NCBI GenBank assembly: GCA_963667255.1
Contig: OY762940.1
Location: 96,001 to 160,000 of the forward strand
Source: Candidatus Cloacimonadota bacterium
GTDB taxonomy: Bacteria; Cloacimonadota; Cloacimonadia; G963667145
Length of the DNA: 64,000 bases
Direction of reading: 5' to 3'
A model generated the notes under the pieces. It searched no databases and was not told where the DNA came from. It was given only the letters and a program-made list of their open reading frames with translations. Each line of letters begins with the position of its first letter. Position 1 is the stretch's first letter. This document shows positions 28,882 through 30,179 of this stretch, in pieces. The position numbers were made by a program, and so were the translations under genes.

Positions 28882-29190
28882 CCAAGCACCTATTTTTAAC
28901 TTCAAACTTTATCAGAATTTTCAACTCTCTTTAATAAATGTCTTTTAGAATTGCCATTCTGTTTCAGCATTCTTTCTCTTTTTCTCGCATCACTTTCCGA
29001 TAAATAAGCTTCATAATATACAAGCTTCCAATTACCAAAACTTGTATACTCACTCTTACCACTCAAATGCTCAGAAATCCGTCATTTTAAATCCTTGGTG
29101 TAACCAATATAATGTAAGTTTCTATTTATTTCAGTAAATAGACATCATACATAGCTACTCCTTAATTCAAAATTAAAAATAGGTGCTTGG
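28882..29190 (-). other. 23S intervening sequence 1 (helix 45 position), 309 bp
   Basis: AT-rich insert between ...ACCGAAATCGCGG and GGTAGGAGAGCATTGTAG; 18-bp perfect terminal inverted repeat CCAAGCACCTATTTTTAA. Confidence 0.92.
28902..29152 (-). pseudogene. GIY-YIG nuclease pseudogene inside IVS1
   Basis: AAGGAG RBS; MYDVYLLK /frameshift/ RNLHYIGYTKDLK*RISEHLSGKSEYTSFGNWKLVYYEAYLSESDARKRERMLK... Confidence 0.85.
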
Positions 29191-30100
29191 CCGCGATTTC
29201 GGTATTATACTTATCAGTCCCGATCATCTTCGGTGCATTACCACTTAACCAGTGAGCTATTACGCACTCTTTAAATGATAGCTGCTTCTAAGCTAACATC
29301 CTGGCTGTCTTTGCAATAAAACATCCTTTCTCACTAAGTATAAATTTAGGGACCTTAATCGTCGGTTAGGGATCTTTCCCTCTCGCCCATGGAGCTTATC
29401 CCCCACAGACTGTCTCCCTTACATCAAATTACGGTATTCGGAGTTTATTAAGGTTCGGTAGGCTTGTAGGCCCCCTAGCCTAATTAGTGCTCTACCCCCG
29501 CAATTCTAATAAGAGGCACTGCCTAAACAGTTTTCGGAGAGAACCAGATATCGCCCGGTTTGATTGGCCTTTCACCCCTACCAACAGCTCATCCACTGAT
29601 TTTTCAACATCAGTTGGTTCGGTCCTCCATTTGGTTTTACCCAAACTTCAACCTGGCCATAGGTAGATCACCGGGTTTCGGGTCTAATCCTGCCAACTAA
29701 ACGCGCTATTAACACTCGCTTTCGCTTCGGCTCCATCACTTTATGATTTAACCTTGCTGACAAAATTAACTCGCTAGCTCATTATACAAAAGGCACGCCA
29801 TCGCCCGACAAGCAGGCTCTGACTGATTATAAACATACGGTTTCAGATACTATTTCACTCCCCTTCCGGGGTACTTTTCACCTTTCCCTCACGGTACTAG
29901 TTCACTATCGGTCGCAAAATGTATTTAGCCTTACCGGATGGTCCCGGCAGATTCAGACAGGGTTTCACGTGCCCCGCCCTACTTGGGATACTGCTACAGC
30001 AGATACAGAATTTCGTCTACAGGAGTTTCACCTTCTTCGCTCCAGCTTTCCAGCTAAGTTCGACTATCCTCTATCAGTCCGATATCGCAGTCCCGCAACC

Positions 30101-30179
30101 CCAAGCACCTATTTTTAACTCGTTTCTATTCTCTAATTCTGTTTGCAATTCCTTCTCAGAATTAAAAATAGGTGCTTGG
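30101..30179 (-). other. 23S intervening sequence 2 / extended helix in domain I (about E. coli nt 270), 79 bp
   Basis: Between GAGCCTAAA and GGTTGCGGGAC; same 18-bp terminal inverted repeat as IVS1. Confidence 0.85.

Follow-up and report, generated by a model that had tools for sequence, protein, structure and literature searches.

A stem-bounded cassette, with and without a GIY-YIG nuclease gene, in place of several 23S rRNA helices of a Cloacimonadota bacterium

Of the two inserts in a 23S rRNA gene of a Cloacimonadota bacterium, one carries a gene and the other does not, and both appear to belong to a single family of stem-bounded cassettes, which replaces exposed hairpins of RNA genes and is likely moved by its own GIY-YIG nuclease, a reading to which we give a probability of about 60%. 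The origin of rRNA intervening sequences (IVSs) and their spread from helix to helix have so far had no mechanism beyond "horizontal transfer," and a cassette with shared ends would help to explain how they spread. The window analyzed here is a 64,000-nucleotide stretch of the genome in question (G000), which is assembled as one 1.59-Mb contig; we call the rRNA operon within the window operon A (Table 1).

Table 1. Positions of the rRNA operon, the inserts and associated features in the window
Feature	Position	Strand	Basis or reference
rRNA operon A	16S 31286-32851, 23S 27187-30444, 5S 27013-27129	(-)	
23S rRNA gene, host gene of the inserts	27187..30444	(-)	Rfam RF02541, 2721 bits
IVS1, 309-bp gene-carrying cassette in place of helix 45	28882..29190	(-)	E. 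coli 1165/1188
IVS1 stem, 5' arm, 27 bp with G-U pairs	29164..29190	(-)	RNA folding
Shine-Dalgarno-like AAGGAG directly after the 5' arm (putative use)	29158..29163	(-)	
Broken small GIY-YIG nuclease gene	28902..29152	(-)	alignment of the two operons
IVS1 stem, 3' arm, stop codon within the overlap	28882..28908	(-)	RNA folding
IVS2, 79-bp gene-less cassette in place of the domain I hairpin after E. coli 271-272	30101..30179	(-)	
Empty helix 25; operon B counterpart filled by a 79-bp gene-less cassette	29803..29817	(-)	
Empty helix 10; operon B counterpart filled by an 83-bp gene-less cassette, 5 basal pairs in common	30278..30294	(-)	
RNase III gene (rnc), candidate stem excision enzyme, outside the element	7187..7957	(-)	Pfam PF14622, PF00636, PF00035

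A sequence-only reading of the window had reported identical 20-nt ends for IVS1 and IVS2, and both 20-mers are indeed present, one at 28882 and 30101 and the other at 29171 and 30160. The 18-bp perfect stems that it described are real and, once G-U pairs are admitted, continue without interruption to 27 bp in IVS1 and to 21 bp in IVS2, where the stem carries a purine-rich loop. Its placement of the inserts in helix 45 (H45) and domain I agrees with our alignment to an E. coli 23S gene, by which the insert sites were mapped. The IVS2 site, at about 275-300 in Rfam model coordinates, is presumably helix 15 (H15), a name that we assume here, as we do all helix names besides 9, 25, and 45. The G+C content of IVS1 is 30%, compared to 49% in the adjoining rRNA. 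Searched against the entire 1.59 Mb, each 20-mer occurs exactly four times, always within the two 23S genes. The interiors of the long and short forms are essentially unrelated, as had been claimed (local-alignment p = 0.03, 0.39, and 0.27 for three short inserts), and an origin of the short form by simple deletion of the long one was not supported (p 0.03-0.39, three inserts with two tests each). Contigs from sequencing runs X19 and X20 cross each insert and both of its flanks with zero differing letters; since these and the other best runs may be the source sample, they exclude an assembly chimera without being independent biology.

The suggestion that the arms of the two inserts could also cross-pair over 1.3 kb holds only as a possibility, as the long-range duplexes (-27.8 and -29.0 kcal/mol) are weaker than the local stems (-31.4 and -34.2 kcal/mol), and we rejected cross-pairing as the main fold because the local stems are more stable. 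The helix-15 stem would also close long before transcription reaches helix 45. By analogy with Coxiella, RNase III would be expected to excise the long stems, and rnc is present; excision of both inserts is predicted to leave 23S fragments of 265, 910, and 1695 nt. The 79-nt insert could also remain part of the rRNA, forming an expansion segment. None of the RNA runs contained more than 0.23 of the words, and one of them (X1) covers conserved parts only, probably with RNA of a relative, so that the absence of cover over the inserts is no evidence on fragmentation. Across 18 elements, whose boundaries were cut with a motif and whose members are in part kin and not independent, the first 12 stem positions are paired in 18 of 18, with two-sided changes at positions 2, 3, 4, and 8. 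The bias of stem mismatches toward G-T is weak (22 G-T versus 11 A-C, p = 0.08).

The same stem is found well beyond the window. Operon B of the genome (C1:990741-994131) has it at four 23S helices, H10, H15, H25, and H45, and in two runs from one sample (X20 and X21) H10 and H25 each occur both with and without the cassette. Outside rRNA, it forms P12 of RNase P RNA (C1:1142459-1142526, inside RF00010) and a terminator-like hairpin, followed by a T run, 3' of a small ferredoxin-like gene (C1:72617-72650). The terminator stem is common to G000 and its sister species G001; in the sister species G002 to G005, the ferredoxin terminator has a different stem that agrees in five basal pairs only. 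A genome-wide scan for inverted repeats headed by the motif returned nine matches, eight from the family and one unrelated, compared to 0-1 per shuffle in five shuffles. The four operon B helices, the RNase P RNA, and the filled and empty alleles all argue for the portable stem module, in a gene-carrying and a minimal form, that had been proposed from the window, as does the finding that relatives have the gene-carrying form at helix 15. We consider the portability of the stem-bounded unit close to shown.

To follow the inserts among relatives, we drew on 11 genomes with 21 23S genes in all, of which 12 belong to the six species of the genus (G000-G005). All five sister species carry related elements. 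The number of cassettes per 23S gene is two in operon A and four in operon B of G000, and three (H10, H25, and H45) in operon a and none in operon b of G001. In the last of these, all four helices are empty and have unrelated native hairpins, and an empty H45 allele is also present in run X22. At both sites occupied in the window, the IVS-free alleles have different native hairpins, and the shared stem is native at neither. Short forms are present at H15 in G002-G005, while the nuclease form is found at H45 in G000 and G001 and at H15 in G002 operon b, G009, and G011 (the gene is broken in the latter two). Comparing filled with empty alleles, the whole hairpin has been swapped from its base, with 0-5 basal pairs retained; basal microhomology amounts to 5 bp at two sites, 3 bp at one, and ≤2 bp at two, and is therefore not a rule.

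After 13 nt had been trimmed off each end, what remained of the short inserts of G000 proved to be 69-86% identical between H10, H15, and H25 (z 6.5-9.4), and those of G001 at H10 and H25 71% identical to each other, whereas inserts of G001 and G000 at the same helix reach only 42% (H10, z -0.1) and 57% (H25, z 2.2). In this pair of genomes, the short inserts thus cluster by genome and not by helix, G001 having a subtype of its own at the helices concerned. The RNase P P12 copies cluster by site instead (69%). The stem is present at P12 in G000, in G001, and in collapsed form in G002, where a 24-nt hairpin has the variant of the ends that is found in the long cassette of G002 itself. In G003, the hairpin at H45 resembles, and may be, a similar collapsed remnant. 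The genus-specific motif was found in 0 of 30 P12 helices of other Cloacimonadota, although the head of three of them is GC-rich in a similar way and may be native.

Several other repeats were seen in these genomes. An intergenic locus of G002 (L271:1380-2270) is a repeat mosaic in which three or four cassette-type stems are nested among other repeat families; we considered it as a known RNA and rejected this, and its parts recur 67 times in G002, 64 in G005, 37 in G004, and once in G000. In the 23S genes of G008 and G022, other long stems sit at H10, H25, and the tip of H68 (L044, L045, and L048-L050); the H10 and H68 stems have a CACT(A/C)AT head like the family motif, and one loop has a 7-nt tandem repeat. 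The G011 23S gene also has a 748-bp insertion with a 152-aa ORF (L047), probably a group I intron, the ORF being what we take by its motif to be LAGLIDADG-like. Within the window, the 16S-23S spacer has, between tRNA-Ile and tRNA-Ala and not in an IVS, the gene of a 115-aa four-helix-bundle "23S rRNA IVP" (30743-31090, minus strand; PF05635 E=9e-30, TIGR02436) with repeats of the TCAATTATCAATT type on its flanks; sequence matching the spacer recurs at other places in the genome, and spacer length in the genus ranges from 459 to 862 bp. A perfect tandem repeat of the 5-nt unit ACTGA occupies 35256-35350 with about 19 copies.

The sole ORF of the cassette is of the GIY-YIG type. No DDE or HUH transposase is encoded in the cassette, and for a ribozyme core there is no Rfam intron match within the window, the ORF and stem filling the 309 bp. 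The window copy has a missense change in the first motif at 29146, a 4-nt deletion near 29130, and a nonsense change at 29084; an alternative genetic code for the in-frame TGA was rejected given that operon B has CGA there and that the window copy is also frameshifted. The operon B allele is intact (84 aa, G000:C1:992162-992416; Pfam PF01541 E=2e-16, 60 bits), and both the intact and the broken allele are present in short-read contigs. In an alignment of the operon B allele, Y3-V4-Y5, Y16-G18, R26, H30, and E61 are invariant in four of four rows, presumably as the GIY and YIG motifs and the catalytic Arg and Glu. By these motifs and its modeled fold, the operon B allele belongs to the GIY-YIG superfamily, with nuclease activity as a prediction. 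UPF0213 proteins are the nearest solved relatives by sequence, and the fold model (pLDDT 80, from a four-row alignment) matches UPF0213 (1ZG2), Slx1, and HIGLE ahead of I-TevI, with E below 0.001 for the first match only. Between the H45 copies of G000 and G001, dN is 0.089 and dS 1.49 (dN/dS about 0.06), which shows that selection has maintained the protein.

Each of the two rRNA operons is immediately preceded by another GIY-YIG-like ORF with a weaker match (window 33315-33542, minus strand; G000:C1:987630-987857), and in the window palindromic repeats follow it near 33200-33300. In G002 (L058 and L063), an Ssn-like GIY-YIG gene is present as a tandem pair, identical in sequence, amid palindromic repeats. 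The cassette nuclease is 38% identical over 69 aa to a G002 protein that we take, by its motif, to be Ssn-like; the C-terminal part of the latter is unaligned.

Homologous cassettes were collected with a four-protein alignment as the query. We took the best 80 of at least 503 genome loci, the best 80 of at least 478 metagenome loci, and 30 loci from 232 genomes of the phylum, and these 190 loci were reduced to 164 at 90% identity, 152 of them with full flanks. Because this sample was ranked by similarity to rRNA-borne queries and favors relatives of rRNA-borne proteins, the proportions that follow are biased and are not population frequencies, and all of them are counts among the matches listed. 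An enclosing inverted repeat with a score of at least 12 was found at 86/152 loci, compared to 13/400 cross-paired and 4/400 shifted controls; a strong stem was absent from the other 66/152. Strong stems start with a match to at least 6 of 7 letters of CCCnGCAC in 52 of 72 cases, and the median length of the 79 cassettes measured is 299 bp. rRNA genes hold 46 of the 164 loci, 37 with a strong stem and 46/46 in the sense orientation, at about eight 23S and four 16S helices. The hosts of these rRNA cassettes include Cloacimonadota, Pseudomonadota, Spirochaetota, Verrucomicrobiota, Thermodesulfobacteriota, and five CPR groups. Among mapped loci with a stem, the junction recurs at 538/557 in 12 of 13 at H25 and at 1165/1188 in 5 of 6 at H45, a recurrence to be read with the stem finder in mind, which runs to the helix base by construction. 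Of 20 of the non-rRNA stem loci searched with Rfam, three lie in or beside RNase P RNA, and for the remaining 17 the search recognized no host RNA where the cassette sits.

Target duplications of at least 6 nt were found in 0/34 rRNA cassettes and 7/45 non-rRNA cassettes (null 2.3%), five of the seven at tRNA 5' ends, again among the matches listed. At these tRNA 5' ends (L087, L111, L126, L129, and L230), the first 6-11 nt of the tRNA are duplicated, a junction of a different type from hairpin replacement. A Shine-Dalgarno-like motif precedes the gene in 20/36 rRNA cassettes versus 3/51 others, a difference that is confounded by host taxonomy. The protein tree (87 columns) does not firmly reject one clade per helix, with p-AU values of 0.04 (H45), 0.08 (H15), and 0.10 (H25) under the less reliable model, and 79 of its 161 inner branches are unresolved; on both counts, we rejected it as too weak to prove movement between helices.

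If the nuclease does move the cassettes, a Slx1/UPF0213-like enzyme would be translated from the rRNA-sense strand and would cut the bases of hairpins in single-stranded DNA, for example, on the displaced strand of heavily transcribed genes. Repair, needing hardly any homology or none, would then copy in a stem-capped donor, so that one hairpin takes the place of another. Copies without the gene would be moved in trans, copies could pass between operons by gene conversion, and cassettes would in time decay or collapse to short hairpins; the host would tolerate them since the helix base is preserved and long stems are probably trimmed by RNase III. The enclosing stem, the purifying selection, the many unrelated targets, and the kinship with branch-specific nucleases suggest that the nuclease probably does drive the movement. 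Against this, the cassette encodes no ligase, recombinase, or transposase for the joining step.

The main rival is passive ectopic conversion, in which ectopic gene conversion and template switching exchange palindromic stems between hairpins and recombining rRNA segments carry them from species to species, with the nuclease a passenger or homing only into the empty allele of its own helix. The likeness of inserts within a genome could indeed stem from ectopic gene conversion without any nuclease. We nevertheless find such a spread unlikely, given that first entry into an unrelated empty hairpin, as at H45 where no basal pairs are shared, exceeds what homology offers, and that the gene-carrying form occupies about a dozen helices as well as sites outside rRNA; the 6-11-nt duplications at some copies in front of tRNAs and the purifying selection on the gene also speak against it. 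The strict sense orientation fits movement by the nuclease, but it would equally fit selection for expression from the rRNA transcript or a route through RNA, in which RNase III frees the stem-bounded RNA, a reverse transcriptase acting in trans copies it into DNA for re-insertion, and the nuclease does no more than open the target. That route could account for 46/46 sense orientation among the matches listed and for the near-exclusive residence in abundant RNAs in G000, and an RNase III gene is at hand. It is nonetheless improbable, as copies are also held by terminators and intergenic DNA, the cassette contains no reverse transcriptase, and RNase III cuts within the stem in Coxiella (PMC4990558), so that an excised RNA would lose the basal motif that every copy keeps.

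Still slightly less probable is a signal for processing selected by the host, in which the identical ends are an optimal RNase III site and nothing moves. Stems that are conserved and covarying would be expected of such a site, and the H45 stems of G000 and G001 are identical over 24 nt despite a gene dS of 1.5. RNase III, however, recognizes mainly duplex shape and not a 20-nt sequence, the presence of the inserts differs between two operons of one genome, and homology between the loops at three helices cannot be produced by selection that acts on the ends; this interior homology already largely refutes the proposal. An assembly artefact might be feared in a metagenome-assembled genome, but its probability is close to nil, refuted as it is by the spanning contigs, by both alleles of H10, H25, and the nuclease gene, and by the elements in the five sister species.

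Returning to cassettes moved by their own nuclease, we tentatively propose, at somewhat less than even odds, that they constitute a new class of minimal selfish element of ∼300 bp, in which a single GIY-YIG nuclease reads the shape of a hairpin rather than its sequence and swaps its own stem into rRNA, RNase P RNA, and terminator hairpins. Gene-less and collapsed copies would then explain many bacterial rRNA IVSs, and among the variable helices regarded as "native" some would be its fossils. G000 is a testable system, with intact and broken nuclease alleles and filled and empty helices as internal controls, one gene-less subtype at three helices, and the RNase P RNA and terminator copies. Should the nuclease drive the swap, this would be a mobile element that targets structure and falls far below the size of the autonomous elements known, and possibly a source of a hairpin-specific tool for single-stranded DNA.

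The comparisons below with the literature on rRNA insertions and nucleases cover passages of PMC11270868, PMC11893778, PMC4990558, and PMC2801512. IVSs have been published at 23S helices 9, 25, and 45, in Salmonella, Leptospira, and Coxiella (PMC4990558). The inserts share with these classical IVSs a long terminal stem in place of a small helix, a sporadic presence among operons and species, the helix 45 and 25 sites, low G+C, and the possibility of a small ORF; both the stem-loop replacing a variable helix and the sporadic occurrence by which IVSs are recognized are found here. They differ in a terminal sequence common to several helices, RNase P RNA, and a terminator, in the use of helices 10 and 15, and in an ORF that is GIY-YIG and not S23p/IVP.

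Also published are GIY-YIG ORFs in CPR rRNA genes, within insertions that belong to neither the group I nor the group II introns (Tsurumaki et al. 2024, PMC11270868). As in our sample, these ORFs are scattered over poorly conserved rRNA sites, and the non-intron insertions very probably belong to the same family. The host here is not CPR. That study argues against homing; the term "inverted repeat" is absent from its main text, and the passages covered here mention neither a terminal motif in common nor derivatives without the gene nor sites outside rRNA. More generally, in the literature searched, for the most part main texts outside subscription, we found no account of stems shared across helices, of gene-less derivatives, or of RNase P and terminator sites.

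Like homing endonucleases of group I introns (I-TevI type), the cassette has a nuclease within an rRNA-neutral insertion with filled and empty alleles. Unlike them, it has no ribozyme and no room for a DNA-binding domain, its targets are many and unrelated, and the native hairpin is removed and not interrupted. Autonomous and non-autonomous palindromic repeats, some inside RNA genes, are known as REP/RAYT, MITEs, and Rickettsia palindromic elements. The cassettes differ from these in having no HUH or DDE transposase, a low copy number, and target duplications in 0/34 rRNA hairpins among the matches listed.

A similar architecture is that of Ssn (cd10448; Chenal et al. 2025, PMC11893778), in which a single-domain GIY-YIG gene is bracketed by its own hairpin repeats (NTS/SRM), many gene-less repeats exist, and an IS-like origin has been proposed. 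SsnA cuts single-stranded DNA beside a hairpin, a precedent for a lone GIY-YIG domain able to cut near such a structure. The differences are one long inverted repeat around the gene here compared to separate 28-nt hairpins there, a different motif, a protein of 84 aa compared to 94 aa, and structured RNA genes as sites; the term "rRNA" is absent from PMC11893778. The published SRM pattern was found within 500 bp of 0/89 stem cassettes, and one intended positive control also gave 0. The element is IVS-like at the RNA level and Ssn-like in its architecture, being neither an intron nor a classical insertion sequence.
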